From IMG/VR virus record IMGVR_UViG_3300026493_000002: a stretch of DNA of 64,000 bases. The stretch is one strand, 5' to 3'. Under the pieces are notes generated by a model. The model was not told the origin of the DNA. It saw only the letters and a list, made by a program, of their open reading frames with translations, and made no database searches. This DNA is from a virus. Taxonomy: Duplodnaviria; Caudoviricetes. This document shows positions 6,283 through 23,829 of the stretch, one piece after another; position 1 is the stretch's first letter, and each line of letters starts with the position of its first letter. The translations under genes were made by a program, and so were the position numbers.

Positions 6283-6313
6283 GCCTGCGCGAGACTCGCA
6301 TTCCCGAGATCCA

Positions 6314-6413: not shown

Positions 6414-6456
6414 CCGTAATTCTTATGAAGCACACCTATCCCGTTGAGAGTAGACC

Positions 6457-8157: not shown

Positions 8158-8166
8158 GGAGCCGAC

Positions 8167-8502
8167 ATGCGTGCAGTAAAATCTCTGTTCGATCTACTGC
8201 CGGGCGCTGCAATGCCGCCTCTTCCGAACTTGCCCGAACCGGCACGTAAGGAAGAGGACGGCACCCGTCTGTACACCGAGGAGCAGGTGACCGTCTTGCT
8301 CTACAGGCTGCTCAACAGTCCCACCCACGTAAACGATCACGTGGAGCTCAATCGAATGCTGGCTCGTCTTGGCCAATTCGTGGATGCCGAAGAGGGTTAC
8401 ATGACCCGTGACCGGCACCATGATTTGCAGTTCATCCTGATCGGCCTGTTGTCGGTCCGCAACGAACTCTTCGGATTACCGTCGAATTTGCCTCCCGTCT
8501 AA
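8167..8502 (+). CDS. hypothetical protein
   Basis: AAGGAG RBS. Confidence 0.75.
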   Translation: MRAVKSLFDLLPGAAMPPLPNLPEPARKEEDGTRLYTEEQVTVLLYRLLNSPTHVNDHVELNRMLARLGQFVDAEEGYMTRDRHHDLQFILIGLLSVRNELFGLPSNLPPV

Positions 8503-8504
8503 TG

Positions 8505-8511
8505 CTGTAAA
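8505..8511 (+). promoter_or_regulatory. CTGTAAA motif
   Basis: immediately after stop codon, intergenic. Confidence 0.5.
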
Positions 8512-8553
8512 GAACCCATGTAACACCCACCGAGTATTCACCAAGGAATCACT

Positions 8554-9078
8554 ATGACTGACACCATTACCCACCTCAAACTGAGCGATCCGATTGCCAA
8601 TTTCGATCTGGCTTTCGATGACTGTGCGGACACCGGCAACCTCTGCATTTCCGTGGAGCTCGTGGACAGCACGGCACTTGCCGACTTCGGCATTCAGGGT
8701 CCCGCGGCCAACATCAAGGCAAAGTTCCTGCTGGTGTCGGCGCTGCCTGCAATCTTGAGGAAGATCATCGAGGGCAAGCAGCACCGAGGCGGCGTGACGT
8801 TCTCGATGCTCGACGCGGAAGGCAAGACCGTCGCGTCACGCCGCTTCCGTGTGAAGTCGGCCAGCAGCAAGATCAAGATGAACGCCTCCGACGGCGGTCG
8901 TCGCACCCGAAAGCCGGATCCCAAGAGCGACACCTTGTACGAGCAGGCCGAAATGTTCGAGAAGTGGACCATGCGCCAGAGCGCAGAAATCCGTGACCTC
9001 TTGGCGTGCATCGCCAGCAGTGGCGCCACTCTGCCGACTGTCGAAGTCCTGTTCATCGAGGAGAGTAACGGTGTCTGA
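8554..9078 (+). CDS. hypothetical protein
   Basis: AAGGA RBS. Confidence 0.75.
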   Translation: MTDTITHLKLSDPIANFDLAFDDCADTGNLCISVELVDSTALADFGIQGPAANIKAKFLLVSALPAILRKIIEGKQHRGGVTFSMLDAEGKTVASRRFRVKSASSKIKMNASDGGRRTRKPDPKSDTLYEQAEMFEKWTMRQSAEIRDLLACIASSGATLPTVEVLFIEESNGV

Positions 9079-9754
9079 TATTGACGAACTGGAAGACGAA
9101 GTAGACGAACAGCAGATTCAGGTCGAGCCGATCAAGATTCGCCCGCTCCCTGATGATCGCAAGAAGCTGCTGATCGCACGTGGTGTCCCCGGCCAGGACC
9201 TCATGACTGACGGTGTTCCGGTGTTCGATGCCGTGGACTACTTGGTGCGCATGGAGCCTGACGTTCCGGGCGTGACCAACAAGACCATCAGTGCCAAGAA
9301 ACAGATGGACAAGCTGCGCACCATCCTGCGCAATCCGCTGCGTCGTCAGCCCTACACGATTGCCATTGGGTCCTATCCGAGCGATGCGCGTGCGAAGTAT
9401 CTGGCGCACACGTTGTTCAACGCCGCGATCACCCAGTATCAGAAGGATCGTCTGCGCTTCGGTGCCCGCGGTCTGCCGATGTGGCATCGCGTGTGGGGCA
9501 ACTACAAGGACGCGCTGCGCGATGCTCCCGGTAAGGAGACGCCCAGCATGTTGTTCATCGCCAACATCCATGACGAGTCCACGAGTCTCAAGATCGAGAA
9601 GGTCCGTGACTTGTTGGAAATGTACTCCGACATTCCTCGCGTTGTCATCACCGGCGGCAGCGCACCGATCGACCTCTTCCAATACCGATTGTCCTATCCG
9701 CTGACGGCCGGCTTCTACGTTGGCCCGCCGAACCTGATCAAGGAGAACATCTGA
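9071..9754 (+). CDS. degenerate DnaC/IstB-like AAA+ fold protein (start moved to GTG 9071)
   Basis: AKYLAHTLFNAA, SMLFIANIHDE, DLLEMY...PRVVIT follow DnaC topology; Walker A/B not intact; GGAG RBS. Confidence 0.45.
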   Translation: MSDIDELEDEVDEQQIQVEPIKIRPLPDDRKKLLIARGVPGQDLMTDGVPVFDAVDYLVRMEPDVPGVTNKTISAKKQMDKLRTILRNPLRRQPYTIAIGSYPSDARAKYLAHTLFNAAITQYQKDRLRFGARGLPMWHRVWGNYKDALRDAPGKETPSMLFIANIHDESTSLKIEKVRDLLEMYSDIPRVVITGGSAPIDLFQYRLSYPLTAGFYVGPPNLIKENI

Positions 9755-10737
9755 TGCGCCTCGACCTTTCTCTCGAAGGCACCGCTGCCCAGAAGCGCCG
9801 CAAGAAAAAGAAAGCTGCGCCCGCCAAGGACTTGACCTTCACCGAGTCGATGGATGCTCTTGCCACCTTCGACGACGTGCTGCTGACCGGCCGATTGAAC
9901 GACACGCAGATCACGGCCGAAGTACAGCAGCCGTGGGCACGCGCCGAACTGGTCGAAGGCGAAGTGCACCAAATGCTCCACATCGTGCCGCTGCGCGATA
10001 TGCCGGCGGGCACTCTCCTGTACGTCAACGGTCAGGTGCCCAACTTCAACGCGGCGACGCTGGTCAACGAGTTGCAGGAGCAGATGCGTCAGTTCCAGAA
10101 CGCGGTCAACATCGTGCTGCTCATGCGCAACCAAGATATGCTGCTGGCGAATACGCTGCAGGCGGCTATCAATCGTTGGGCCACGGCCAACGCCGAGACG
10201 CTCCAGATCTTGGGCATCAACGCTGATGACCTGTACCCGAAGTTCCCGACCGTCCAGGAAACGAAGCTCCGGGAAGGTGATACGGAAGTCTTCGATGAAG
10301 ACCGGCAGGCCAAGATCGAACACGCCAAGGATGCCAGCGGCGTGATGCCCCGCATCCACGGCACCGAGTTCCTGATGACGCCGGAAGAAACGGTCGCATA
10401 CGACGTGCCCGTGATCTTCGCCGCAGACGTTATCGAGTTCGGCGACCTCATGAACATCAAGAAAGCCTTCAAGGGCCAGACGGTGTTCCTGTTCGAGTCG
10501 GGCATGTTCTTCGACGCCGATCCCGAGGGCCCCGATTTCTGGGACGTGATCTTCGACTCCCGTTCCGAGTGCAACATCGTTCCGATCTTCCTGCCGTCGG
10601 ACGTCGAAGCGTGGGCCCAGCTGTTCGGCGGCAAGATGATGACGCGCTCCGATATCGCCACTCCCGGCTTTGAGAAGGGCGCCATCGTGTTGCGTCGCGG
10701 CCGGGTGACGAAAGACACCTTCGAGTTCACTACCTGA
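9754..10737 (+). CDS. hypothetical protein with Lys-rich N-terminus
   Basis: TGATG coupling to upstream gene. Confidence 0.8.
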   Translation: MRLDLSLEGTAAQKRRKKKKAAPAKDLTFTESMDALATFDDVLLTGRLNDTQITAEVQQPWARAELVEGEVHQMLHIVPLRDMPAGTLLYVNGQVPNFNAATLVNELQEQMRQFQNAVNIVLLMRNQDMLLANTLQAAINRWATANAETLQILGINADDLYPKFPTVQETKLREGDTEVFDEDRQAKIEHAKDASGVMPRIHGTEFLMTPEETVAYDVPVIFAADVIEFGDLMNIKKAFKGQTVFLFESGMFFDADPEGPDFWDVIFDSRSECNIVPIFLPSDVEAWAQLFGGKMMTRSDIATPGFEKGAIVLRRGRVTKDTFEFTT

Positions 10738-10747
10738 GTACAGAGCA

Positions 10748-10942
10748 ATGTCTGACAAAACCCACGCACCGATGCCGACCTGCGACTGTCTTCCGTGCAG
10801 TCATGTGGAACGGGATCGCCTGCGCAATCTGCTGAACAATCGGCCGGCGGTGAATGCCGGTCTGGAAAGTGCGTACGTCAAATGGAGCGGACAGGTGTAC
10901 GAGTCCGACATGTTGGCACACGCTGGTATCCGTCCCAACTAG
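10748..10942 (+). CDS. small hypothetical protein
   Basis: fills gap between genes. Confidence 0.6.
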   Translation: MSDKTHAPMPTCDCLPCSHVERDRLRNLLNNRPAVNAGLESAYVKWSGQVYESDMLAHAGIRPN

Positions 10943-10949
10943 GTGAGTT

Positions 10950-11378
10950 ATGCGCCTCCACTTCAAAGCTGACAATCAGAACAAGCTGTTGCCGTTCAGT
11001 GTCGATCACTGGCAGCGCGTGTTCCTGCCATACGACAAGCTGATGGTGACTGCCGATTCGGTTGTCGAGGCACCCTCCGTGTTTGAACACTGCGAGCGCG
11101 TGGCTCAACGTACTGGTCTGGGCTGGGAACTGCCTTCGATTGAGACGTTGCAACTGATCGTGGACTTCACCAAGTATCAACCTGCGGCCGATAGCCGTTA
11201 CTTCCGTTTTGAGCGTGGCTTCTTTTGGTCGTCCACGCCAACTCCGTGGAGTGACGGTCACCGCTTCGGCATTGAGTTCTTCACGGGCGAAGTGCGCTAT
11301 CGGCAGATCACCGAGCAGGGAATGGCGCTTTCTGTGCTGAGGGATTTCCGCCCTCCGGCAGGCAAGGCCCGGCGTTAA
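10950..11378 (+). CDS. DUF1566 (Lcl C-terminal) domain protein
   Basis: WELPSIETLQLIV...FWSSTP...FFTGEV signature. Confidence 0.75.
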   Translation: MRLHFKADNQNKLLPFSVDHWQRVFLPYDKLMVTADSVVEAPSVFEHCERVAQRTGLGWELPSIETLQLIVDFTKYQPAADSRYFRFERGFFWSSTPTPWSDGHRFGIEFFTGEVRYRQITEQGMALSVLRDFRPPAGKARR

Positions 11379-11380
11379 AT

Positions 11381-11387
11381 CTGTAAA
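11381..11387 (+). promoter_or_regulatory. CTGTAAA motif heading the DNA-modification operon
   Basis: intergenic, after stop codon. Confidence 0.5.
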
Positions 11388-11442
11388 TACCAAACGTTAT
11401 CAACGAGGCCTTAGCGCCAACCACTACAAGGCAAACGACAAG

Positions 11443-12261
11443 ATGGGCAAGCACCTGAAACTTACGGACCTGCGTGAGGCCGAATACAACCCGCGAATCA
11501 TCAGCGCCAAGCGACTGGAGAATCTCCAGAAGTCCATGCTGCGCTTCGGTGACCTCTCGGGCGTCGTGTTCAACGAGTCCACCAAGAAGCTCGTTTCCGG
11601 CCACCAGCGTTTGAAGACGATCCGCGAAGCCGGCCTCGAAACCGAAATCGTGACGTCCAAGCGCAAGGACAAGCACGGCACCGTGGCAGAAGGCTACATC
11701 ATCGCCAAGACCCCGGACGGCGAGATTCGTCTGCCGCTGCGCGTCGTCAACTGGGCCGACAAGAAGGCTGAAATCGCGGCGAACATCGCAGCCAATGCGC
11801 ACGGCGGTGACTTCGACCGTACCAAGCTCGGCGCGCTGTTGGTCAAGCTCGAAAAGGGCAAGGCGTTCGACATTGACACGCTGGGCCTCGACCCGCTGTC
11901 TCTGCGTGGCCTGATGCAGGTCATGCCGACGCTGGGCACCAAGGGTGAAGGCGGCGGTGAAGAAGACGGCGAGAGCTTCCCGGAGTACGGCGAAGACAGC
12001 TTCGACCTGCATCACACCTGCCCCAAGTGCAAGTTCCGTTTCAGCGCATCGGCTTCTTCCAAGAAGGCGCCGGGCCCGAAGGAGAACAAGCAGGTCGAGG
12101 CAGCCAAGAAGACCAAGGCTGCGAAGAAGGATGCCGAGAAGAAGGCGTCCAAGAAGTCCAAGAGCGACGACGATGCACCGGTGAAGAAAAAGAAGTCCAA
12201 GAACAAGGACGAGCCGGCGAAGAAGTCGAAGAAGGACAAGTTCAAGAAGCTGCGTAAGTAA
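11443..12261 (+). CDS. ParB/Srx-fold protein with CxxC ribbon and Lys-rich tail
   Basis: EYNPRIIS, VSGHQRLK, NIAANAHGGDFD; HTCPKCKFRF; ~70-aa Lys-rich tail. Confidence 0.85.
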   Translation: MGKHLKLTDLREAEYNPRIISAKRLENLQKSMLRFGDLSGVVFNESTKKLVSGHQRLKTIREAGLETEIVTSKRKDKHGTVAEGYIIAKTPDGEIRLPLRVVNWADKKAEIAANIAANAHGGDFDRTKLGALLVKLEKGKAFDIDTLGLDPLSLRGLMQVMPTLGTKGEGGGEEDGESFPEYGEDSFDLHHTCPKCKFRFSASASSKKAPGPKENKQVEAAKKTKAAKKDAEKKASKKSKSDDDAPVKKKKSKNKDEPAKKSKKDKFKKLRK

Positions 12262-12274
12262 CCGGAGAACAGAC

Positions 12275-13156
12275 ATGGCGCGTAAGGCCCAGAACAAGAT
12301 CGCAGTGCCGGCATTCAAACGCCGTAAGTCGGCAAGCGATGCCAAACCGCGCATTCGTCTGCGCTTGACCAAGAGCCTGGAGAAGCACAAGGACGAGCCG
12401 TTGGCTATCCTGTTGTCCTCGGGCCTCGACTCCAATGCCGTGCTGTTCTCGGCATTGGAGCTCGGCATGAAGCCGCATATCTACAGCTTCACGCTCGATG
12501 ACCGCGAGGCTCGTGACTTCCGTATCGCTCGACAGACGGCCGAGACCTTCGGCCTAAAGTTCACACCGATCTACCTTCCGACCGACCTCAAGAAGGTCAA
12601 GAAGGGCCTGATCAGTACCGTGAAGGAGCTCGACGCCAGCGGCAAGTCGGCCATCGAATGTCTGTACGCTTTCAAGTACGCGGTCGACTCCATCAAGGAG
12701 AAGAACATCGTCAGCGGTCTGGCGGCCGACATTTACTTCGTGCTGTCCAAGAAGGGCTGTATGCACTACAAGGACTGCGCAGACGACTACCGCATTCCGC
12801 GACACGCTACGGTCAAGGGTCCCACGTCGCAGACTTCCAAGCTGCGTGCCTACTGCAGGAAAAAGGGCAAGCGCTGGTTGAGTCCGTGGCTGACCGATCA
12901 GATGATGGACGAGTTCCGTGGTACCAGCTGGGATGACGTGAACAAGCCCAAGCAGAAGAACCCGATCCACGTGCAGTACCCGGAGTTCCTGGCTCACGCC
13001 AAGACCTACCAACACACCAACCTGCAGCTGGGCGACAGCGGTATCTCGGCACTGTTCACGCAGCTGCTGGACGATCCTCACTGGAATCCCGAGCGCCGGT
13101 TCAAGAGCATGACGGGCGTGTACAACCGCCTCGTTCGTGGAGAGATTACCAAATGA
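12275..13156 (+). CDS. asparagine-synthetase-like ATP-dependent amide ligase (synthetase domain only)
   Basis: PP-loop LLSSGLDS, VSGLAADIYF, SPWL; no N-terminal Ntn glutaminase domain. Confidence 0.8.
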   Translation: MARKAQNKIAVPAFKRRKSASDAKPRIRLRLTKSLEKHKDEPLAILLSSGLDSNAVLFSALELGMKPHIYSFTLDDREARDFRIARQTAETFGLKFTPIYLPTDLKKVKKGLISTVKELDASGKSAIECLYAFKYAVDSIKEKNIVSGLAADIYFVLSKKGCMHYKDCADDYRIPRHATVKGPTSQTSKLRAYCRKKGKRWLSPWLTDQMMDEFRGTSWDDVNKPKQKNPIHVQYPEFLAHAKTYQHTNLQLGDSGISALFTQLLDDPHWNPERRFKSMTGVYNRLVRGEITK

Positions 13157-13758
13157 TCTTTGAACTGAGCCGCAAAGGCTACAGGATCGAGAAGCTGGAG
13201 AAGAGCGCACGCGGTGTCGTCGCTCTCCTCCCTATCTTCGACTACCTGCGAACGTTGCCCGGCATGAGCCTGTGCACGGATCTGGATGCCCAGATCTCAT
13301 ACGTCGATCAGGAGGACCTCGACCTCTACGTGGCCCACAATTTGGACTCGATCTTCGACGTTCCCGCAGAGGGACAAGGCGTGATCGCCATAGCGGGCGT
13401 CAAGAACCACCGGTCGTACAGCTACGAGCCGCGCCCGTACGTGTTCAACGAACCGGGCAGCTTCGGCATGAAGCACGTTGCTCGCGCCGCCGAACTGTGT
13501 TGCCTTGCGGTGATGCCCAACTTCCGGGGCAAGGGGCTTTGCCGCTCACTCACTCTACATCGCCTCGACAAGATGCCCGACAACCGTACGGCAGTCATTG
13601 AGTTGCGGCCGAGTGCTGACAGCCTCAACCAGCTTTCGCGTGAGCCGGAAGCGCACGCATCTACGACCAGTGTGCAGCGCATCGCGCAGCGCCTGGGATT
13701 CAAGTACGAGGGCCGCGCTCTCGCAGACAACAGCATGGTGCTGGTAGCACCGTTCTAA
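13153..13758 (+). CDS. GNAT-family acetyltransferase
   Basis: LAVMPNFRGKGLC acetyl-CoA motif A; ATGA overlap with ligase gene. Confidence 0.75.
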   Translation: MIFELSRKGYRIEKLEKSARGVVALLPIFDYLRTLPGMSLCTDLDAQISYVDQEDLDLYVAHNLDSIFDVPAEGQGVIAIAGVKNHRSYSYEPRPYVFNEPGSFGMKHVARAAELCCLAVMPNFRGKGLCRSLTLHRLDKMPDNRTAVIELRPSADSLNQLSREPEAHASTTSVQRIAQRLGFKYEGRALADNSMVLVAPF

Positions 13759-13769
13759 GGACTTCAACC

Positions 13770-14666
13770 GTGCAAATGACCAATGTAGACCTCATTAGCG
13801 CCCCGTTTGGTGAGGGCGCTGGTGTTCTGGGATCCGAGAACGGCCCGAGTATGCTGGTTAAGCTCGGACTCTGCTCGGCGATCGGGCACGAAGGACTGTG
13901 CATCAATCAGTTCCACGAAATCAAGGCGAAGGTGCATCCGTATGTGCCTCAGCCCAGCCTCAAGTGCGGCGGTCACACGATTGCCTACAACGATGCGATC
14001 TACGAACGCTGCATCCTGAGTCTGCGCGACGACAGGTTCCCGCTGATGCTCGCCGGCGATCATTCGCTCTCCATCGGTTCGATCCTCGCCGCCAGCGACT
14101 ACGCGAAGGAGAATCGGAAGAAGTTCATCTGCCTGTACATCGACGCCCACACGGACTTCAACACTCCGGAGACGACGATGACGGGCAACACCCACGGCAT
14201 GACGCTTGCCGCTGCCGGTGGCCTGTTCCTCGATCTTGCGGTTGAGGCCTCGGAGAACCACCTGGACCTGTCCAGCATCATCTATTACGGTGCGCGTGAC
14301 ATTGACCACGAGGAGCAGAAGCTGCTGGATGAACATCCGGAGATTACCGTCATCGACATGAAGGACCAGTTCCACCTTCTGACGCTGATGGATCTGCTGG
14401 ACGAACGTCTCGACGAGGACACCCACATCCACGTCAGCTTCGATGTGGACAGTCTGGATCCGAATCACTTCCTCGCTACTGGCCTGAACGTGCCGAACGG
14501 TCTCCTTCCACAGGAAGTCGAGGCCCTCTTCCAGGATCTGCGTGCCAGCGGCGCGGTCAAATCCCTTGACGTGGTTGAGTACAACCCGTCCAAGGACAAC
14601 GCCACTTTTGAAGGCGGCCTGATGGTCAACACCATCGTGTCCCGTCTCTTCCACAACGCCCGGTGA
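13770..14666 (+). CDS. arginase (ureohydrolase family)
   Basis: AGDHSLSIGS, IDAHTDFNT, GNTHGM, SFDVDSLDP, DVVEYNP: all Mn-binding residues present. Confidence 0.9.
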   Translation: MQMTNVDLISAPFGEGAGVLGSENGPSMLVKLGLCSAIGHEGLCINQFHEIKAKVHPYVPQPSLKCGGHTIAYNDAIYERCILSLRDDRFPLMLAGDHSLSIGSILAASDYAKENRKKFICLYIDAHTDFNTPETTMTGNTHGMTLAAAGGLFLDLAVEASENHLDLSSIIYYGARDIDHEEQKLLDEHPEITVIDMKDQFHLLTLMDLLDERLDEDTHIHVSFDVDSLDPNHFLATGLNVPNGLLPQEVEALFQDLRASGAVKSLDVVEYNPSKDNATFEGGLMVNTIVSRLFHNAR

Positions 14667-15679
14667 CAGACGTGTCCAAGAAAATCTTCAAGATGCCTAC
14701 GATGAAGGCAATCAACGCCAAGGAGAAGCACTTCAAGGGTATCAGCACGTTCAGTGGCTGCGGTGGCAGTTCGACTGGCGTGAAGATGGCCGGCGTCAAG
14801 GTGCTGGTGGCAACCGAGTTCATCAAGCCTGCGATTGAGACCTACAAGGCGAACCACAAGGGCACCAAAGTGCTGGGTGATGACATTCGCAAGGTCGACT
14901 GGGAAGCTGTGCGCAAGGAGTTCAAGCTCAAGCGCGGTCAGCTGGACTTCTCCGAGGGCAGTCCGCCGTGCAAGTCGTTCTCCACTGCTGGCACCAAGAG
15001 TGAAGGCTGGGGCGAGGAAAAGAAGTACTCCGAGAACGTCAGTCAGCGTACCGACGACCTGTTCTACGAGGAAATGCGCAAGCTGTCCGAGTTCATGCCC
15101 AAGACCTTTGTGTGCGAGAACGTCAAGGGCATGGTCGAAGGTGACGCCAAGGGTTACTTCCTTGAAATCCTCCGTGACCTCAAGGCGGTCGGCTACAACG
15201 TCCGTGCGCAGGTGTTGAATGCTGCGCGTCTCGGTGTTCCGCAGGCCCGTGAGCGCATCATCTTCGTTGGCGTCCGTGACGATCTGGCGAAGAAGGGCCA
15301 CATGCCCGTATTCCCCAAGCCGCAGAAGCACGAAATCTACGTCACTGACGTGCTGCCGAAGATCGCCTACCTCAAGTCGAAGAAGAACGGCATCATGCAG
15401 TACGTGCCGGCTACCATCCCGAGTCCGACCATTGTTGCATCCGATGGCCTGAACTCGGAGACTGCGGGCTTCTCGACCGGCGGCTTCATCGAGACCATTG
15501 AGGGCGAACGTCGCAAGTACACCATCGAGGAGTTGAAGAAAATCTTCACCTTCCCCGAGGACTTCGTGTTCACCGGCAACTATCGCCAGCAGTTCGAGCG
15601 CATCGGCCGTTCGGTTCCGCCGTTGATGATGTACCACGTCGTCCGCGAAATCCGTAGGCAGATCCTCGAAAAGCTGTAA
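14663..15679 (+). CDS. C5-cytosine DNA methyltransferase, predicted carboxymethyltransferase (motif X Asn replaced by Arg316)
   Basis: FSGCGG (I), GSPPCKSFS (IV), ENVKG (VI), QARERIIFVG (VIII), ERIGRSVPP (X); GTGA overlap with arginase. Confidence 0.9.
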   Translation: MTDVSKKIFKMPTMKAINAKEKHFKGISTFSGCGGSSTGVKMAGVKVLVATEFIKPAIETYKANHKGTKVLGDDIRKVDWEAVRKEFKLKRGQLDFSEGSPPCKSFSTAGTKSEGWGEEKKYSENVSQRTDDLFYEEMRKLSEFMPKTFVCENVKGMVEGDAKGYFLEILRDLKAVGYNVRAQVLNAARLGVPQARERIIFVGVRDDLAKKGHMPVFPKPQKHEIYVTDVLPKIAYLKSKKNGIMQYVPATIPSPTIVASDGLNSETAGFSTGGFIETIEGERRKYTIEELKKIFTFPEDFVFTGNYRQQFERIGRSVPPLMMYHVVREIRRQILEKL

Positions 15680-15680
15680 A
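15674..15680 (+). promoter_or_regulatory. CTGTAAA motif
   Basis: overlaps methyltransferase stop codon. Confidence 0.4.
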
Positions 15681-15708
15681 CCATCCTCACATCCAATCGG
15701 AGATTCCC

Positions 15709-16353
15709 GTGAGCGAAGAACAGAACGAAACGGCTGTCGTTGTGCCGCCGGAACCCAAGACCATCACGGTGCTGATTCTCGGCACCGATCGCAACGTCGG
15801 CCAGGACAAGCTCGGTGAGCAGCTGGCCGCACAGTTGATCGCTGGTGGCATCAAGGTGCAGCACACGCCGACCGATGACTACGCGCGCATCCGCGCTGGC
15901 GAACTGCCCAGCCTGATCGAGAGCCACCTGAGCAAGAAGCACGCCATCAACGTGCTGTCCTACAACGGTGCGCTGTCGCATCCCGAGACCGGCCCCGTGG
16001 CCCTCGCGCTGCTGTACACGGTGAAGCCCAGCCTCGTCATCATGTGCCACGCGGGCTTTCGCGGTACGCAGGACGGTGTCAGCGTGCAGGGCGTTGGCCT
16101 TGCATCTGAAATCGCCAACACACTGCTGTTCGCTCGCCGCTTCAATCCCGATGCGAAGCTGGCGGGCATCAATCTGCATGGCGAAGGCCAGACCGAGGCC
16201 GACCTCAAGACCACGATTGACGAGACCTATCCCCTGGGTCAGTCGTTCGGCGTCGAAGTGTTCTCCTTCGACAGTGGCTCCGACGATTCGGAACTGCCCG
16301 AGGAGTTCGTTGAATCCATTGACGTGCTGGCACGAAAGGCGAAGTCACGATGA
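15709..16353 (+). CDS. DUF1611-like (DgcN-related) P-loop-fold protein, divergent
   Basis: ILGTDRNVGQDK, LLYTVKPSLVIMCH, KLAGINL parallel DUF1611 segments GTDCxVGK, LLHGSQPDALILCH, VVAIALN. Confidence 0.5.
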   Translation: MSEEQNETAVVVPPEPKTITVLILGTDRNVGQDKLGEQLAAQLIAGGIKVQHTPTDDYARIRAGELPSLIESHLSKKHAINVLSYNGALSHPETGPVALALLYTVKPSLVIMCHAGFRGTQDGVSVQGVGLASEIANTLLFARRFNPDAKLAGINLHGEGQTEADLKTTIDETYPLGQSFGVEVFSFDSGSDDSELPEEFVESIDVLARKAKSR

Positions 16354-17198
16354 ACGCGATTACTGATACGGAGTTCCAGGACCAGGGCGTCGTCTCGCCT
16401 CCGTGCGTCAAGAAGGTCGATGACCACCAGCCGGGCGCGAAGTGGGAGTTCAATGCCGACGTCGCCGTCAAGTTCGATGACATGCTGGGCCGCTCGATTC
16501 CGGGCTACCTGCAGATGCGCGAACTGGCGTACGAACTGGGCAAGAAGTTCATCCCCGATCAGAACGTCAACGTGATCGACCTGGGCGCTTCGCGTGGTGA
16601 GTCGGCTTCGGCCTTCATCGACACGCCTGCGTTCTCGGGCGCCAACTACTTCCTCAGCGAAGTCAGCGAGCCGATGCTGGATCAGATGCGTGAGCGCTGG
16701 AACGGCGTGTCGAACGTCCATCCGGTCAGCTACGACCTGCGGCGCAAGTACACCGATATCGCCTACGCGATCCACGATCCCGTGCGCAACATGGTGAACA
16801 ACGGCAAGATACCAAGCACGCCGTACACGCTGCATCCGACGACGCTGGTGCAGGCTATCCTGACCCTGATCTTCGTGCCGATCAACTTCCGGCAGGGCAT
16901 CCTCAAGGGTGTCCACGAGGGCTTGGCTCCGGGCGGCGCGTTCATCATGGTCGAGAAGGTCCTGGGCGACAGCGCCGAAATGCAGGACCTGTTGGTCGAT
17001 GCCTACCACGATCACAAGCATCGTCACGGCTACAGCTGGGAAGACATTGAGCGCAAGCGTGCGTCTCTGGAGGGCGTGCAGGTTCCCGTGCGCCACGAGG
17101 AGAACATCGCCATGCTGCGCTCGGCCGGCTTCCGCAACGTCGAAACCTTCTGGCGCCATCTGAACTTCGTCGGGTACATCTGCATCAAGGACCAGTGA
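16350..17198 (+). CDS. cmoA: carboxy-S-adenosyl-L-methionine synthase CmoA-like
   Basis: WEFNADVAVKFDDMLGRSIPGY, DLGASRG, LTLIFVP, PGGAFIMVEK, KRASLEGVQVP, LRSAGF...WRHLNF; ATGA overlap. Confidence 0.88.
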   Translation: MNAITDTEFQDQGVVSPPCVKKVDDHQPGAKWEFNADVAVKFDDMLGRSIPGYLQMRELAYELGKKFIPDQNVNVIDLGASRGESASAFIDTPAFSGANYFLSEVSEPMLDQMRERWNGVSNVHPVSYDLRRKYTDIAYAIHDPVRNMVNNGKIPSTPYTLHPTTLVQAILTLIFVPINFRQGILKGVHEGLAPGGAFIMVEKVLGDSAEMQDLLVDAYHDHKHRHGYSWEDIERKRASLEGVQVPVRHEENIAMLRSAGFRNVETFWRHLNFVGYICIKDQ

Positions 17199-17230
17199 CC
17201 TCTTAGAGGCTCACCGCGACAGTCTACAAC

Positions 17231-17250
17231 GGGCCTTCTCAGGAAGGCCC
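17231..17250 (+). terminator. 8-bp GC-rich hairpin ending modification operon
   Basis: GGGCCTTC-tcag-GAAGGCCC; no U-tract. Confidence 0.4.
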
Positions 17251-17268
17251 CATGAAGAGGGCTTCACT

Positions 17269-17742
17269 ATGTTCGGTTGGCGTAACATCCTGACCGCACC
17301 GAAGAACAAACGTATCCTCGTGTGCGGCAACAACTGGTCCGACTCGCAGGGTCCATTGAAGGAGCCGGTGATTGCTCAGTGGAATGAAAGTCGTGAACGC
17401 TGGGAGACTGGCACCGGCATTCTGGGTACTTACGGCATTCGCCCGACCCACTGGCAGCCGCTCCCTGAGGTCTACTCCACGTCGTCGATGGATCCGAAGC
17501 ACATGATCTACGTTGACACGGGTCGCGTCCTGAGCATTCACGCCGCGGTGAAGGTCGTGCTGGCGTACGAGGGTGTTCCGTTCGACGTGGTGACTGGCCC
17601 TCACGGTGCAGGCCTGCTGGTCGAACCCCAGCATCTGGACAAGATGAATCGCGTTGCCAATGATTGGGGCGGGCTGCGTGACTCCATTCCACGCGCGCTG
17701 TTCAACGCTACCGTGGACTACCAACAGAGGAACAAGCCGTGA
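17269..17742 (+). CDS. DUF551-like domain protein
   Basis: RILV...W...PTHWQPLPE signature. Confidence 0.6.
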   Translation: MFGWRNILTAPKNKRILVCGNNWSDSQGPLKEPVIAQWNESRERWETGTGILGTYGIRPTHWQPLPEVYSTSSMDPKHMIYVDTGRVLSIHAAVKVVLAYEGVPFDVVTGPHGAGLLVEPQHLDKMNRVANDWGGLRDSIPRALFNATVDYQQRNKP

Positions 17743-17876
17743 GCGACACCCTGAAATGCGACTACTGCGGCTACGTGTACCAGCTCGGTCTCAGCCTGTA
17801 CAAGGCCGGCGACAAGTGCCCGAAGTGCAACGGTCGCGGCATTCTCTGTTCCAAAGGCTCGCGAGGTAACCCGTGA
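17739..17876 (+). CDS. small Zn-ribbon protein (45 aa, not in ORF track)
   Basis: VSDTLKCDYCGY...KCPKCNG; GTGA overlaps at both ends. Confidence 0.7.
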   Translation: MSDTLKCDYCGYVYQLGLSLYKAGDKCPKCNGRGILCSKGSRGNP

Positions 17877-18652
17877 GCAGCCACGTTCTTCGAGTAGTGG
17901 ACAACCCCACACTTCCGCTCGTTCCGGAATTCTCGGTCGCCGTCGGTCATTCCATCGGTGACTTCGGAGCGCAGGCCAGCAGTCTCGGAGGCATCGTCTA
18001 TGCAACGTTGCTTAAGAAGAGCTCCATTCCGAATGAGGAGTCGGCGCGTCGTCTGCACGCTTCGATATCCAAGCTGTACACGGAAGATCTGGATCGACCG
18101 ATAGCGGGCATGACCGCTCAGCTTGATGACTACAGCATTCCTCTCTTGCGCATGTCTAGCGCCGAGATTGACCAGTTGGTATATCTCGGATTCAATCCGA
18201 TCCGCTGCGCAATCCAGTTCGGCGTTGTTCCGTGGGCGCAGCATACGTCTCATGGGTACAGCATCCAGCTGCTGCGCCTCTTGGTGACGGCTATTCATGC
18301 CATTTCAGTACGGGCGGGGCGTGCCTGCGAAGCCTGTTCGCTGGAAGGACCTGCACGCAATCACGCCCTGTACCACCACTCTGCTGAGGTCTTCATGGAG
18401 CTCCAGCAGTTCAGGCTTTCGCATATGTTCCAACTGGTAGCAGGCAGACACGGAGCGCACGGTATCGCCATTATGCTTGAGCGCGACGCCCCGCCGTTCG
18501 GAAAGAACTTCCTTGAGGAGGCTCTGTGCATAAGCACGGACGTCATGGAGGTCGGTAACGTTTTCGGAACCCTCCACCAGTTGCAGATCCTGCATGAACT
18601 GTGGCCGAGCATGTTCACTGGTGGCCCGCAAATCTGTAAAGGGAATCGGTAG
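17873..18652 (+). CDS. hypothetical protein
   Basis: GTGA-coupled ORF, codon use less biased than neighbours. Confidence 0.65.
   Translation: MSSHVLRVVDNPTLPLVPEFSVAVGHSIGDFGAQASSLGGIVYATLLKKSSIPNEESARRLHASISKLYTEDLDRPIAGMTAQLDDYSIPLLRMSSAEIDQLVYLGFNPIRCAIQFGVVPWAQHTSHGYSIQLLRLLVTAIHAISVRAGRACEACSLEGPARNHALYHHSAEVFMELQQFRLSHMFQLVAGRHGAHGIAIMLERDAPPFGKNFLEEALCISTDVMEVGNVFGTLHQLQILHELWPSMFTGGPQICKGNR
18634..18640 (+). promoter_or_regulatory. CTGTAAA motif
   Basis: last codons of upstream gene, 33 nt before next start. Confidence 0.45.
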
Positions 18653-18672
18653 TTTCAGCTGAGGAAATATCC

Positions 18673-19125
18673 ATGCGCGAATTGAAGTTGCTACGCAAGC
18701 GCGTAAAGGCAATGTGGAAAATGGAAGAGGAGTTGTCGCCTCCGGAGCGCAAGCTCCATCAGTGGCAATTCCTCTCGACCCAGACGGGCATCCCGTATCT
18801 CGTAGGCAAGGGTGACGCAAACACCTTCTTCTACAAGATCGGCGAGAAGGGCGAAATGCAGTACGTCATGCCCGACAAGATGTTTGCCATCTTGGACAAG
18901 TGGTGCGGCGAGAAGTACGTCATGTACGCCATCGCTCGCAACTCCAACGTGAAGAAGGCCAAGCGCCAATCGAAGGTCCTCGCCGACCTGTTGAAGCGCA
19001 CCAACTCCAAGTATGCGGACTACCACATCGTGGGTATCACCGCCGACAGCCGAGTGGACAAGCTGTACTCGATGAAGACAGGCCTGACGGCCAACCAGTG
19101 GGTGCCGTTGAAGGTCAAGCCGTAG
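18673..19125 (+). CDS. hypothetical basic protein
   Basis: GAGG RBS. Confidence 0.8.
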   Translation: MRELKLLRKRVKAMWKMEEELSPPERKLHQWQFLSTQTGIPYLVGKGDANTFFYKIGEKGEMQYVMPDKMFAILDKWCGEKYVMYAIARNSNVKKAKRQSKVLADLLKRTNSKYADYHIVGITADSRVDKLYSMKTGLTANQWVPLKVKP

Positions 19126-19130
19126 ATGCA

Positions 19131-19201
19131 GTGTGACGTGTTCAGAAACCGGTGCGCACGTTCTGCCCGGAAACACTAATTTCTGAACACGTTTGGCACA
19201 C
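19131..19201 (+). repeat. long intergenic hairpin with 13-bp perfect inverted repeat
   Basis: ACGTGTTCAGAAA (19136-19148) / TTTCTGAACACGT (19180-19192), extended by GTGTG/CACAC and inner CCGG/CCGG. Confidence 0.8.
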
Positions 19202-19237
19202 CAAGGTGAGCCTCTTCCACACTACAGGTACTTCCCC

Positions 19238-19621
19238 ATGAATCCACCCTCGGCAGAGTCGAAGGCATCATCCGGGTCGCGTTACATAACAGTGATGCTG
19301 ATTCCGGTACTTGGTGCCAACGGCAAGGTGCAGAATCGCACCATCCCGTTTGACCGTCCTCCCACGAAGGAATTCGCTGTCAATACCTGCGAGCGCCTCC
19401 ACGAGGAGTACGTCACCCGTGACGGTTACGATTCGGAATGGGAGCGTTGCGCGGCAGTACTGAGGCAAATCCCCGAAGAGCGGTTCTCGCGTATGAATCA
19501 GCGTCGTGCTACCAGCATGACTCACCTGGTCGACGTGGCGCTTCCCAACGGTACGATCACCCAGCGAATGTTCAGCGCACGCTCCTGCCTCGTCCACGAG
19601 GTCAAGCATTCGGAGCGGTAA
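19238..19621 (+). CDS. hypothetical protein (start moved to ATG 19238)
   Basis: track start lies inside the hairpin. Confidence 0.65.
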   Translation: MNPPSAESKASSGSRYITVMLIPVLGANGKVQNRTIPFDRPPTKEFAVNTCERLHEEYVTRDGYDSEWERCAAVLRQIPEERFSRMNQRRATSMTHLVDVALPNGTITQRMFSARSCLVHEVKHSER

Positions 19622-19803
19622 TGCCAAGCATCAACTCCAATCCAAGGCGTCTTCCCTCCCCGTCTGAGGCGAGGGCGCTCTCGCTACAGATGCGCGAGCG
19701 AGCGGAGAATCACCCGGACGCTACGCAGGACGATTGGCTGATTCGCAATCTTCTGCTGGCGTACAGTCGAGGCGAAGTACAGCCTCGTCCGAAAAAGAAG
19801 TAA
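19621..19803 (+). CDS. small hypothetical protein (60 aa)
   Basis: TAATG coupling, GGAG RBS. Confidence 0.65.
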   Translation: MPSINSNPRRLPSPSEARALSLQMRERAENHPDATQDDWLIRNLLLAYSRGEVQPRPKKK

Positions 19804-19809
19804 CCGCGT

Positions 19810-20434
19810 TACAGGCGAACGACTGAATCCCGTCATCCTCTCAGGATAGTGAGTAGGTGCTGCCAGGCACCGAGAGCGATGTGACAGTTTGCCTAACCCT
19901 GGCGTCCTCGACTGAGTGTGAGCAACCCAGTTGAGTAAAACCACACGACAACTAGCCAGCTCTCTTGTCTTGGCACCGCCGCTCACTGAACGCCTGGAAA
20001 ACGTTCGGCAGGCTTGCACGTCGTGGTTAAGAGTTGGGATTATAGGTCGTACCCTAGTCCCGATGGGTTTATGCGAGCCACACTGGTGCCCTATGAGGTC
20101 TGACATACGGCATGGGTAATCTACCAAAGCACCTCAGACAAGCTGCTAACGCCATTTGGTTTACGGGATTTTCCGATGGCGTCGGCCGATGAATTCGGGC
20201 AGCACCTGCCTACCAAGATACACTGCTAGTTTAATCGTTCGCGTGTCTCCTCGCCGTCGCCCCGGTTTAGGATTGACTACGAACCACTAAAACATCATTC
20301 TCGATTGGCACTCGGTGATCCTTGCCCACCGTTGAGCATCTTGCGCGAACACGCGGTTCCCCGTCCCGCACGTAATGCGCACTATCCTCACGCCACGACT
20401 GATATCCGGAATTTCGGTCTCCGGGCAGTGTACC
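19810..20434 (+). ncRNA. candidate large structured non-coding RNA with tRNA-like 3' domain
   Basis: no credible ORF; helices 19843-51/20380-88, 19853-64/20198-209, 19907-14/19928-35, 20149-55/20176-82, 20220-26/20425-31; boundaries approximate. Confidence 0.55.
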
Positions 20435-20442
20435 CTCCAAAT

Positions 20443-20449
20443 CTGTAAA
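20443..20449 (+). promoter_or_regulatory. CTGTAAA motif
   Basis: inside non-coding island, upstream of tRNA-like element and terminator. Confidence 0.5.
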
Positions 20450-20472
20450 GACAGACTGTGAGGATCTTCTAC

Positions 20473-20561
20473 GCGCCGCTAGTTTAATAGCGAATGTGGC
20501 AATTCAGTAATCGCCGGCCTTATCCCCCTTTGGCCCGCGGTCCTGTTCCGGTTGCCGCGCT
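20473..20561 (+). ncRNA. degenerate tRNA-like element
   Basis: 6/7-bp acceptor GCGCCGC/GCCGCGC, TAGTTTAAT at positions 8-16, long variable arm; T-loop, anticodon stem and CCA non-canonical. Confidence 0.3.
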
Positions 20562-20661
20562 ACCGTCAAAACAGATTGCTTGACAATGGCCTTCCCCAGC
20601 CGGAGTCACTACCCAGAGCAATCTATCCGGTCCATGAAACCGGGCGGCGCACCCTACCCAG

Positions 20662-20697
20662 AGCCTCACGCCTAATCAAACGGGCGTGGGGCTTTTT
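20662..20697 (+). terminator. intrinsic terminator
   Basis: AGCCTCACGCC/GGCGTGGGGCT 11-bp stem followed by TTTT. Confidence 0.8.
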
Positions 20698-20729
20698 CGT
20701 TTGTGTCACCAGTCTGGAGCCTACAGAGA

Positions 20730-21272
20730 ATGAAACGCACCACCATCTTCGGCACCCGAATCAAGGGTCGTCTTTCTCCACTGCCGATCATCACCTTCAA
20801 GCTCAAGCTGAATGGTCCCGATGACAAGATCGTCAACGGTATCGGCGTGTACGTCTTCTCGGTATTCGATGACGACGGCAAGCTGCACGTGGTCGATGCC
20901 GCTACCCAGGTCTGGCACGACCTGAACAACACGCTGGTGCTCGCCGACGGCCGTGCCCTGCCGCTCCTCGAAGGCAGCATCGTTGATCGCCGTATGCGTA
21001 CCAAGGTCGATCACGTTCCGTCGCCGTCCGACAATGCCATCGAGTATGCCAAAGAGCATATCGCCAGCATGAACGCTCACATCCTCAAGCAGTTTCACGA
21101 GAAGTTCAACACCACACTCATGGAGGAAGTAGATGAAGCCGAAGAAGACGACACCGATCAGGAAGTCCCCGCCGCAGGCGCTGCCGGCAGTACCGCGACC
21201 GGTGATCCCAACTACTGGTATGCCAAGCGTGACGACGGCGTCAGCGACAATGACGACGCGCCGATGCTCTAA
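20730..21272 (+). CDS. hypothetical protein with acidic tail (start ATG 20730)
   Basis: GGAG upstream. Confidence 0.75.
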   Translation: MKRTTIFGTRIKGRLSPLPIITFKLKLNGPDDKIVNGIGVYVFSVFDDDGKLHVVDAATQVWHDLNNTLVLADGRALPLLEGSIVDRRMRTKVDHVPSPSDNAIEYAKEHIASMNAHILKQFHEKFNTTLMEEVDEAEEDDTDQEVPAAGAAGSTATGDPNYWYAKRDDGVSDNDDAPML

Positions 21273-21334
21273 CCATCTGCCGGCCAAACGCTGAAAGAAT
21301 TAGGCGACAGTCAAACCTGCACTGGTCGCCAGTT

Positions 21335-21341
21335 CTGTAAA
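21335..21341 (+). promoter_or_regulatory. CTGTAAA motif
   Basis: intergenic. Confidence 0.5.
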
Positions 21342-21347
21342 CAACAA

Positions 21348-21400
21348 GGGTAGGCAGTACGCTTCGATATTCGTTGCCTACTGCCTACCCATTTTCTTTT
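21348..21400 (+). terminator. intrinsic terminator or attenuator hairpin
   Basis: GGGTAGGCAGTA/TACTGCCTACCC perfect 12-bp stem then ATTTTCTTTT. Confidence 0.7.
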
Positions 21401-21418
21401 CCAGAGCATAAAACGACA

Positions 21419-21877
21419 ATGAACGAATCTCGCCTGGGTTTGCTTTGCAACACCTATCCGTCCGACTGGGAAGAGACTCACACGGGCGTGCTGGTTCTGC
21501 TGGACGTCGAGGCCCGCTCCGCGCTTATCGTGGGCTATACTCCGTCCGGCGACACGGGCCGCACCGTGGAATTGAACGACGCCCAGCAGTTCATGAACCT
21601 GTTTGGTCTCTCGGGCAAGAGCCTCGAAGGAGACTGTGCAGGCCAGCGCGCTCTGTTCTACGTGACGGTTGATGCACTGAACACCATCGGCAGCACCGTC
21701 TACTTCCTGCGTACCGACTTCAAGGTCAAGGGCGGTGTCGAGGATCAGGCAAAGCTGGCCCAGCATCTGTTCGAGGTCATTTCGGACAGCAGCGATCCCG
21801 CGCACGAATACATGGACGATCTTCGCATTCTCAAGAACGACGTGTTCGGCAATACCGACGTAGTTATCGGAGTCTAA
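21419..21877 (+). CDS. tail-sheath N-terminal-domain-like stand-alone protein
   Basis: ALIVGYTPSGDTGRTVELNDAQQFMNLFG...GSTVYFLR parallels sheath N-terminus. Confidence 0.45.
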   Translation: MNESRLGLLCNTYPSDWEETHTGVLVLLDVEARSALIVGYTPSGDTGRTVELNDAQQFMNLFGLSGKSLEGDCAGQRALFYVTVDALNTIGSTVYFLRTDFKVKGGVEDQAKLAQHLFEVISDSSDPAHEYMDDLRILKNDVFGNTDVVIGV

Positions 21878-21880
21878 CCT

Positions 21881-22828
21881 GTGTCCAAGAACAACGATCC
21901 GCGACGCCGTCCTCACCACAGCAGCACCCTGATCGACGTACATAACGACGACACGGTGCGCGATCTTGCGGACTCCCTGGCTACGGAAATCCGACACGAT
22001 TCCACGGCTCGCATCCTGCTGATCGTCGGCTCGTTCTCCGACGGCATTCAGTTGACCAAGCGGCTGCACGCTTTCGATCCGTACATGAAGATCGAGTCCT
22101 GCGGCGCCGTGCGTCACATGCGTGGTGTGATGCCCCGCAATGACACGCAGGTGTACGTCATCCCGTCGATGATTGCCGAACTGGGCAACTCCTGGCCGGG
22201 CTTCAACGTCATGTACCTCGTGTCGTGTCCCGCGAACGACCAAAGCCTCGTTCAGGTGGTGTCCCGCGTCAACCGCGCAGGCAAGAGCAATCCGCGTGTC
22301 CGCATCTTCGCCAGCACTGCGGTGCGCGAGGTGTTTGAGAACGCGCGCTGGCTCGAATCCCGCATCAAGGAAACGATTGACGTTGATCTGCACGTCACGT
22401 ATCCGTCCAACCTTCGCGACCAGCTGGTCATCATCACGCCTCAGAATAGCGAGTCCCCGATGATGCTTCTGTCGGACGCCAACCACGTAACGCAGGTGCT
22501 GATCGGCTTCTCCACGTCGGGGCCGGACGACCGAATCTACTGCGTGCAGTCTCTGGCTGCCATGGACGCGATCTACTCCGATCGCGGACGTGACTACCTG
22601 ATGCGGCGCACCGCATCCCAGTTGTTCCTCGATCACAACTCGCCGGTGTTCATCAACCGTATGCGGGAAGGCTCGATGCTCACTTCCGATGGTGTGCGGG
22701 TAGGTGCCGCCGCGCAGTCGCATATGCTCAACACCGCAATCGGTAATGCGTATCGCAACTCACACCCGCTGATGACGCTCTTGCGCCGTGCGTCCAAGTC
22801 TGTACCGTTCAACTCGCTGGCCCAGTAG
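21881..22828 (+). CDS. hypothetical protein with helicase C-terminal-like segment
   Basis: ELGNSWPGFNVMYLV...LVQVVSRVNRAGK resembles SF2 motifs V-VI. Confidence 0.5.
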   Translation: MSKNNDPRRRPHHSSTLIDVHNDDTVRDLADSLATEIRHDSTARILLIVGSFSDGIQLTKRLHAFDPYMKIESCGAVRHMRGVMPRNDTQVYVIPSMIAELGNSWPGFNVMYLVSCPANDQSLVQVVSRVNRAGKSNPRVRIFASTAVREVFENARWLESRIKETIDVDLHVTYPSNLRDQLVIITPQNSESPMMLLSDANHVTQVLIGFSTSGPDDRIYCVQSLAAMDAIYSDRGRDYLMRRTASQLFLDHNSPVFINRMREGSMLTSDGVRVGAAAQSHMLNTAIGNAYRNSHPLMTLLRRASKSVPFNSLAQ

Positions 22829-22859
22829 TACCTATCAATCTACATATCAGGGGAAGTCC

Positions 22860-23222
22860 ATGTCAGTGCAAGTCGATCCCAAGTATCTCGCCGCGTTGGA
22901 GAAGGCAGCGTCCCTCGGCGGTTTGTGCCACGTATCTGGCCTTACCGGCGAAGAGCGCAACCTGATCGCCCGCCGTCTTCTGTCTGTGTACGAAGGCGCG
23001 TTCGCTACGACGCATCCTCGCATCATCCATCACGGGCCTGCTGCGGTGCACACCCAGGCATGCGCTGTGCATCACGACAAGACGGCTGCGGTCTATGACT
23101 GCAACTCAGGCGTGTTCCACCCGTCGTGGGCTGCGCAGTCTCAGGGCTGGAAGCTGGTGCAGGCGAAAACTTGGTGGCAGCGTCTGCTGCTGAATCTCGG
23201 CTTCGGTGACCAGGACTTCTGA
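22860..23222 (+). CDS. hypothetical protein
   Basis: ATG 22860 with GGGGA RBS. Confidence 0.7.
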   Translation: MSVQVDPKYLAALEKAASLGGLCHVSGLTGEERNLIARRLLSVYEGAFATTHPRIIHHGPAAVHTQACAVHHDKTAAVYDCNSGVFHPSWAAQSQGWKLVQAKTWWQRLLLNLGFGDQDF

Positions 23223-23229
23223 GGAGTAA

Positions 23230-23829
23230 GTGGTGGCAAAAGATAAGAAGTCGTCGGCCAGAGCAGAGGTCGACATTACCCCGTCCTACCCGACGTATGA
23301 CGGCGACAATCCGCCGTGGCCGTACACTCGACCCGATCCGCGTCCGTACGGCTATCGTGCGAAGTACGACAAGACCGTCCGCCTGCTGATCCTGCCGGGT
23401 CATCTGCCGCACGATCCCGCCATGAATCAGATCGAGCGCGTAGTCCGTCGCATGATGGACAAGAAGATCGACGTGGTGATCGTCGTTCCCGACTGCTATC
23501 GCGGCATCGGTGAAATCATGGCGAGGCGTAACGGTCTGAACTACCTGATCGTCAACACCGACTACAAGGACAACGTCAACCTGCCGGGCAACAACCTCAT
23601 GTCGGTGTTGATGACCAGCAAGACGGCCCGCATCCGTGTCATGCAGTCTGCGGATCGCGCCTGTGTGGTGTTGAAGAATCCGGTGACCGAGCGCTTCATC
23701 GAGGAACTGGAAGAAAGCGACATTCAGGTCAAGACGTTCAAGCCAATCTATCGCACGCCGAAGCCGCGCCCCAAGCCGGAAGCGGTTGTGCCCGAAAAGA
23801 AATCCAAGAAGAAGGGGAAGAAACGATGA
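23230..23829 (+). CDS. hypothetical protein, possibly degenerate SLOG fold, Lys-rich tail
   Basis: GAGGAG RBS; RIRVMQSADRACVV loosely SLOG-like. Confidence 0.6.
   Translation: MVAKDKKSSARAEVDITPSYPTYDGDNPPWPYTRPDPRPYGYRAKYDKTVRLLILPGHLPHDPAMNQIERVVRRMMDKKIDVVIVVPDCYRGIGEIMARRNGLNYLIVNTDYKDNVNLPGNNLMSVLMTSKTARIRVMQSADRACVVLKNPVTERFIEELEESDIQVKTFKPIYRTPKPRPKPEAVVPEKKSKKKGKKR

Follow-up and report, generated by a model that had tools for sequence, protein, structure and literature searches.

The CmoX-type gene and its motif X arginine

This report deals with a gene cluster of a PaBG-like jumbo phage from soil (Duplodnaviria; Caudoviricetes), contained in 64,000 nucleotides of the IMG/VR virus record IMGVR_UViG_3300026493_000002 (the window), and above all with the open reading frame (ORF) at 14663-15679, which very probably encodes a DNA cytosine-C5 carboxymethyltransferase of the CmoX type. 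The characterised member of this type, CmoX of Synechococcus phage S-B43 (SpCmoX), is a DNA cytosine C5-carboxymethyltransferase that accepts only carboxy-S-adenosylmethionine (Cx-SAM), which is made by the phage CmoA, and that yields 5-carboxymethylcytosine (5cxmC) (Yang et al., Nat Commun, Dec 2025; PMC12783734). The following features define the gene:

14663..15679, plus strand: predicted CmoX-type DNA cytosine-C5 carboxymethyltransferase (PF00145 2.5e-53; best PDB match 8YF3)
14960..14971, plus strand: SPPC motif S100 P101 P102 C103 with the catalytic Cys103 (aligns with S95-C98 of S-B05/S-B43 CmoX; invariant in relatives)
15608..15610, plus strand: CGT codon of Arg316, predicted partner of the Cx-SAM carboxylate (opposite SpCmoX Arg350 and HaeIII/DNMT1 Asn)

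The ORF codes for 338 amino acids and opens with a GTG start that overlaps the stop of the upstream gene; the residue numbering is borne out by relatives, whose alignments begin at residue 4. Profile searches identified the product as a complete homologue of C5-cytosine methyltransferases (PF00145 as listed; TIGR00675 2.4e-46). At 15596-15622 the codons GAG CGC ATC GGC CGT TCG GTT CCG CCG are translated to E312 R313 I314 G315 R316 S317 V318 P319 P320.

A preliminary description of this DNA had read the codon at 15608-15610 as CGT, giving Arg316 in a motif X of the form ..IGRSVPP, and this was confirmed from the sequence as written. It had also placed Arg316 where ordinary C5-methyltransferases have Asn, and had set an alignment as the test of this assignment. 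In HMMER alignments, the residue is indeed matched to the Asn of motif X in both M.HaeIII (IGNAVP) and DNMT1 (IGNAVPP), and to Arg350 of SpCmoX (PDB 8YF3; VGRMVPP), a position equivalent to Asn304 of HhaI (PMC12783734). The structure 4DKJ was aligned to the window protein over residues 94-212 only, and the C-terminus of M.MpeI is not covered. From the motif X Arg and a cmoA gene 0.7 kb away, the preliminary description had predicted a natural DNA carboxymethyltransferase, citing the engineered M.MpeI N374K, in which a basic residue lets a C5-methyltransferase use Cx-SAM. The gene distance holds, as cmoA starts 671 bases past the methyltransferase stop, and the precedent is stated in the published account (PMC12783734). 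The prediction itself is supported, as the same was shown experimentally for the homologue SpCmoX, and for the window protein the sequence points the same way. The idea of a DNA carboxymethyltransferase is thus correct but had already been published in December 2025, and the gene is a further member of a known family.

Among solved structures, the best relative of the window protein is SpCmoX 8YF3 (E 1.4e-58), followed by HaeIII (5.5e-25). CmoX of Synechococcus phage S-B05 (372 amino acids), whose aligned stretches are identical in reading to 8YF3, was compared in detail and is 36% identical to the window protein (E 8e-71). In this comparison S100-C103 aligned with S95-C98, so that the catalytic C103 corresponds to C98. 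Arg350 of SpCmoX contacts the carboxymethyl/carboxylate group of Cx-SAM, its exchange in R350N leaves a dead enzyme, and the other named Cx-SAM contacts are F25, E47, F48, and D69 (PMC12783734). The latter four are matched by F30, E52, F53, and D74 of the window protein. Across eight relatives at 41-82% identity, R316, C103, these four residues, ENV, and QxRxR are all invariant, as are, in the same alignment, the C5-methyltransferase motifs I (F30/G32/G34/G35), VI (E152-N153-V154), and VIII (Q194/R196/R198) as well as IV and X.

Yang et al. listed 5,615 candidate CmoX sequences by the criteria of an SPPC motif and Arg350, reported that the candidate genes often adjoin CmoA, AMP-forming ligases, and ParBc proteins, and pointed out the likeness to engineered M.MpeI N374K (PMC12783734). 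The window protein shares with that enzyme a basic residue in place of the motif X Asn, which enables Cx-SAM use (PMC12783734); however, M.MpeI N374K is a CpG enzyme with an engineered Lys, whereas the window has a natural Arg in a separate phage family. M.HaeIII, M.HhaI, and DNMT1 have the same fold and catalytic motifs I, IV, VI, and VIII, but use S-adenosylmethionine (SAM) and carry Asn in place of Arg316.

Arginine and asparagine at motif X across the family

A full HMMER search of 1.84 billion protein representatives returned 874 at E <= 1e-30, and the motif X column was read in the best 150 of them. At the column of Arg316, 100 of them carry R and 39 carry N, followed by D (6), K (2), and Q, L, and M (1 each), always in an ERLGxSVPP context. 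As the Asn-type enzymes are interleaved with the Arg-type, the state of this residue is a switch and not a lineage background. Among 18 fetched IMG/VR viral loci, a CmoA homologue was found beside 12 of the 13 R-type genes and none of the five N-type genes (Fisher ~7e-4, for loci that are not fully independent and with the N-type representing about two lineages).

Two of the representatives (P0274 and P0341) have Lys at this column, as in engineered M.MpeI N374K, and six have Asp (P0246, P0273, P0286, P0340, P0348, and P0349), each with the rest of motif X identical. When P0274 (Lys) and P0246 (Asp) were used as locus queries, only loci of R- or N-type relatives were returned. Another peculiarity concerns the catalytic site. 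The CmoX relative at 2341-4263 of locus L016 has an in-frame insert of about 375 amino acids exactly at the catalytic Cys (residue 103, SPPC), which bears Intein_splicing, Hint, and LAGLIDADG signatures. Of the 150 nearest representatives, over a dozen, e.g., P0205, P0209, P0211, and P0213, likewise match in two pieces with the break at residues 100-103.

The cmoA gene

The gene that would supply the cosubstrate lies downstream:

16350..17198, plus strand: CmoA-type carboxy-SAM synthase (TIGR00740 1.6e-33; phrog_4752 1.2e-63; PDB 4GEK/4IWN, 1IM8)
17058..17060, plus strand: codon of CmoA Arg237, equivalent to Arg199 of E. coli CmoA (mapped from the 4GEK alignment)

The best PDB matches of this ORF are E. 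coli CmoA (4GEK/4IWN) and H. influenzae YecO (1IM8). Relative to E. coli CmoA, the window protein has an insertion of roughly 70 residues (about 88-160). In the 4GEK alignment, its Y53, D77, G79, and S81 correspond to the SAM contacts Y39, D62, G64, and S66 of the E. coli enzyme, in which Arg199 forms a salt bridge to the Cx-SAM carboxylate (PMC3663124). The window CmoA is 62% identical to gp308 of the jumbo Pseudomonas phage PaBG. SpCmoA, which was shown to be active, is a comparably distant relative with 30% identity to the window CmoA.

The ligase and ParB-like genes

Two genes at the head of the cluster have counterparts among the neighbours of published CmoX genes:

11443..12261, plus strand: ParB-like protein (ParB_N/ParBc), cluster head (phrog_620 2.4e-32; weak PF02195)
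12275..13156, plus strand: CmoY-like AMP-forming amide ligase (PF00733 6.9e-9; AlphaFold2 (AF2) fold; PP-loop SSGLDS at residues 48-53)

CmoY is an asparagine-synthetase-like ligase that acts after CmoX and converts 5cxmC to its glycine amide (PMC12783734). The window ligase is an asparagine-synthetase C-domain without the glutaminase domain. Its AF2 model (predicted local distance difference test, pLDDT, 92.7) is closest to the PDB folds of beta-lactam synthetase 1MC1 (E 3e-8), AsnB 1CT9, and carbapenam synthetase. The sequence is 30% identical to the CmoY-type ligase of S-B05 and 34-38% identical to PaBG-type ligases. The ParB-like protein is 64-67% identical to the CmoX neighbour of the PaBG gp310 type.

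Additional genes of the cluster

Four further genes belong to the cluster or lie close to it:

13153..13758, plus strand: putative GNAT-fold acetyltransferase (Atlas features 0.96, structure template modelling (TM) score 0.6-0.7 to GNAT clusters; weak PF00583)
13770..14666, plus strand: arginase-family ureohydrolase, arginase-type (PF00491 4.5e-44; TIGR01229 3.9e-53)
15709..16353, plus strand: stand-alone DUF1611 C-terminal P-loop-like domain protein, DgcN-related (PF07755 1.2e-12)
18673..19125, plus strand: conserved 150-amino-acid protein (phrog_23597 2.3e-49)

The start of the GNAT gene overlaps the ligase stop. Its PF00583 match (0.0021) is below the cutoff; a motif-A-like loop RGKG is present here, is partly kept in the GNAT homologues that follow the ligase in L012, L016, L019, L020, L021, and L023, and is degenerate in some homologues. 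The ureohydrolase scores 180.7 bits with the arginase model TIGR01229 (3.9e-53) versus 57 with agmatinase (2.1e-15) and 52 with formimidoylglutamase, and its best PDB matches are all arginases. In the arginase alignment, the Mn ligands H98, D125, H127, D129, D225, and D227 are invariant (motifs GDHS, DAHxD, and SxDxDxxDP), and N131, T138 (Ser to Thr), N140, H142, D179, E182, and E270 are kept. Their equivalents in rat arginase are N130, S137, N139, H141, D183, E186, and E277, which hold the alpha-carboxylate and the alpha-amino group of L-arginine and provide the proton shuttle. The motif residues by which arginases bind the guanidinium are retained as well. With at most 38% identity to cellular arginases, the phage enzymes make up a clade of their own that diverges fast.

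The DUF1611-C protein matches NF041892 (DgcN) at 7.5e-7, far under the cutoff, and its Atlas structure has a TM score of 0.77 to DUF1611 proteins. Homologues of the 150-amino-acid protein adjoin CmoA or the ligase in PaBG (gp307), L002-L010, L019, L020, L022, and Dickeya phage AD1, and the family (phrog_23597) is absent from the published CmoX account. Its AF2 model (pLDDT 83) gave no Foldseek match at E <= 0.001, and the best VIA Z, 6.2 for a Pur-alpha-like fold, is within the tool's stated noise range.

The order ligase-GNAT-arginase is found beside CmoX in five lineages, i.e., the window together with its 98% twin L015, L024, L016, L012-L014, and L023, with arginases that are 76% (L024), 52% (L016), 50% (L012-L014), and 38% (L023) identical to that of the window. 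A ligase-GNAT pair without arginase occurs where the ligase is 53-74% identical to the window's, and PaBG and nine IMG/VR relatives are without the GNAT, arginase, and DUF1611 genes. With the arginase as the query, no relative was found in IMG/VR, and 50,697 GenBank phage records contained no real arginase; two unannotated Staphylococcus records at 30% identity were not counted as phage arginases. In the literature library searched, no paper links arginase, phage, and hypermodification.

The cluster is also a mosaic with respect to divergence. Over 12275-15679, compared with L012, L016, and L023, amino acid identities are 87-94% for the ligase and 77-95% for CmoX, but 42-58% for GNAT and 38-52% for the arginase; in nucleotide sequence, the ligase gene is 88% identical to that of L012. 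Such a pattern points to an exchange of cassettes or to rapid evolution of GNAT and arginase.

In comparison with the SpCmoX system, the window has in common the C5-methyltransferase fold, SPPC, the motif X Arg (R316 for R350), and all named Cx-SAM contacts, as well as the adjacent CmoA and AsnB-like ligase and the site beside replication genes. It differs in belonging to a soil PaBG-like jumbo phage instead of a cyanophage and in the addition of GNAT, arginase, DUF1611-C, and ParB-like genes to the cluster. New are the ligase-GNAT-arginase triad and, besides it, the DUF1611-C gene, both of which PaBG and the published system lack.

Genomic setting and relation to PaBG

All sizeable ORFs of the window are on the plus strand, the G+C content is uniform (56-62%), and the genes just upstream of the cluster include those of a DEAD/ResIII helicase and of a DNA polymerase of family A. 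The start/stop overlaps at 13153, 14663, and 16350 suggest that the genes are read together. In a scan for promoters and terminators, shuffled sequences gave more sites than the real one, and the result was uninformative.

The nearest cultured relative is PaBG, with identities of 80% for CmoX (gp309), 67.5% for ParB, 62% for CmoA, and 57% for the 150-amino-acid protein. A megablast search with 11 kb of the cluster found no match in GenBank phages, and the kinship to PaBG is therefore visible only at the protein level. In PaBG, gp310-gp305 are annotated as ParB-like, 'DNA cytosine methylase', 'tRNA methyltransferase', hypothetical, 'asparagine synthase', and hypothetical. PaBG differs from the window in gene order, in its ligase, which is only 38% identical to the window's, and in its lack of an arginase, of a detectable GNAT homologue, and of a DUF1611 gene. 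DNA modification is not discussed in the PaBG paper.

Several soil 'metatranscriptome' libraries contain positions 5000-24000 of the window in identical or almost identical form, on contigs of 50-243 kb at 50-100x depth, and DNA of the window is present in soil metagenomes; one of the runs may be its origin. Because the contigs from the RNA libraries are very long and have a flat depth, transcription is not shown by them, and they may represent DNA carry-over. Another soil run contained a 97.8% variant of the same region (409 differences in 19 kb).

Proposed pathway

In the proposed pathway, the phage CmoA (16350-17198) would first form Cx-SAM from SAM and prephenate. CmoX would then flip out the target cytosine, Cys103 of the SPPC motif would attack C6, and the C5 carbanion would take the carboxymethyl group of Cx-SAM to give 5cxmC in the phage DNA, with Arg316, which replaces the motif X Asn of ordinary methyltransferases, holding the Cx-SAM carboxylate. 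That CmoA supplies Cx-SAM and that CmoX with its Arg316 makes 5cxmC is predicted with high confidence. In a third step, the CmoY-like ligase (12275-13156) would adenylate the 5cxmC carboxylate and join it to an amine; the adenylation and amide formation are predicted with good confidence. The amine may be L-ornithine, derived from free arginine by the arginase of the cluster, and GNAT may then acetylate the remaining, second amino group, for which confidence is low to moderate. As an overall effect, the phage DNA would be shielded from host nucleases. The first three steps were shown for the homologous system, with glycine as the amine, and for the window it is by inference that the proteins are assigned these activities, as it is for the target motif and for which amine is used.

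The triad suggests an ornithine- or arginine-derived amide on 5cxmC. As a tentative proposal, the phage may contain an undescribed base in which 5cxmC is amide-linked to arginase-supplied L-ornithine and N-acetylated by GNAT, with the DUF1611-C protein as a further tailoring enzyme or accessory factor. For the deoxynucleosides, the calculated [M+H]+ is ~400.18 (ornithyl) and ~442.19 (acetyl-ornithyl).

Several observations speak against this pathway or parts of it. The window CmoX is only 36% identical to the characterised SpCmoX, and its activity is read from sequence. The region between motifs VIII and IX, which is responsible for target recognition, is far shorter than in SpCmoX, and therefore the GC specificity of that enzyme is not transferable and the target motif may differ. 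The window CmoA reaches 116.4 bits and is below the TIGR00740 equivalog cutoff of 193.3, and the arginase, with its 180.7 bits, is under the TIGR01229 equivalog cutoff of 227.6. The ligase is only 30% identical to the homologue that uses glycine. Moreover, ligases at 68-74% identity are accompanied by GNAT but not by an arginase; this type of ligase can therefore occur without one, and the amine is a guess.

Alternative explanations

The arginase, GNAT, and DUF1611 genes could be auxiliary metabolic or host-takeover genes, e.g., for arginine depletion or polyamine control, that merely share the same early operon. The arginase-free ligase homologues just mentioned would fit such a role, and the far stronger divergence of GNAT and arginase than of ligase and CmoX could mean a looser constraint. 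However, five lineages retain the order ligase-GNAT-arginase, always beside CmoX, arginase-free clusters still have GNAT behind the ligase, the catalytic residues of the arginase are invariant, and the 50,697 GenBank phage records contain no comparable arginase. Thus, this explanation is considered unlikely.

Even less probable is a pathway in which the ligase joins L-arginine through its alpha-amine to 5cxmC and the arginase-like enzyme then works on the DNA itself, trimming the guanidino group so that an ornithyl amide is left. The position of the arginase, wedged between ligase/GNAT and CmoX in five lineages, and the separate, fast-diverging clade of the phage arginases would be in line with it, and Lee et al. 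(2018/2022) reportedly described on-DNA tailoring of amino-acid adducts in thymidine hypermodification. However, D179 and E182 (D183 and E186 in rat, contacting the free alpha-amino group) and N131 and T138 (alpha-carboxylate) are all kept, and trimming on the DNA is less favoured because retention of residues that bind the alpha-amino group is not expected of an enzyme for N-alpha-acylated arginine.

An ordinary 5-methylcytosine methyltransferase, with the motif X exchange from Asn to Arg as a tolerated lineage change and cmoA serving tRNA or another use, is hardly credible: Asn in an otherwise identical motif X in 39 of the 150 nearest representatives indicates that the fold supports methyl transfer, but SpCmoX with the same Arg cannot use SAM (PMC12783734), CmoA accompanies 12/13 R-type versus 0/5 N-type loci, and profile searches of the cluster revealed no CmoB-type tRNA enzyme.

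Other tailoring variants and biological meaning

The genes around the CmoA/CmoX core differ among relatives of the cluster. At 6689-7360 of L002, and in the equivalent gap of L010, a 2-oxoglutarate-Fe(II) oxygenase (PF13640 1.6e-14) is encoded between ligase and CmoA, which would amount to a further variant of 5cxmC tailoring. Dickeya phage vB_DsoM_AD1 (L017, record 12233-15554) has a full-length DUF1611 gene between CmoA and ligase. More generally, Alexandravirus-type jumbo phages (AD1 and many Erwinia jumbo phages) encode CmoA, a full-length DUF1611 protein, the ligase, and a 206-amino-acid protein near the DNA polymerase, and a CmoX-like gene, itself divided into two matching places, lies ~17 kb from this CmoA group.

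Thymidine hypermodification in phages (also mentioned in PMC12783734) is built on 5-hydroxymethyl-deoxyuridine, the hydroxyl handle of which is activated by phosphorylation. The system of the window would instead use a carboxylate and adenylation, and the enzymes are unrelated. Common to both is a handle at C5 of a pyrimidine that is then decorated with groups derived from amino acids or amines by enzymes of the cluster.

The Asn-to-Arg switch together with an adjacent cmoA is confirmed as a reliable signature of carboxymethyl chemistry, and this chemistry, which was published only in December 2025, had been deduced here from the raw sequence alone. The CmoX system is now placed in PaBG-like soil jumbo phages, including the cultured Pseudomonas phage PaBG, and the operon of the window is a plausible new variant of it. 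Since the accessory enzymes vary (GNAT and arginase; 2-oxoglutarate-Fe(II) oxygenase; full DUF1611) around a conserved CmoA/CmoX core, a family of different 5cxmC amides is indicated, which would matter for the evasion of restriction and as a basis for tools of enzymatic DNA labelling. If the proposed role of the triad is true, its arginase would be the first ureohydrolase recruited to phage DNA hypermodification.

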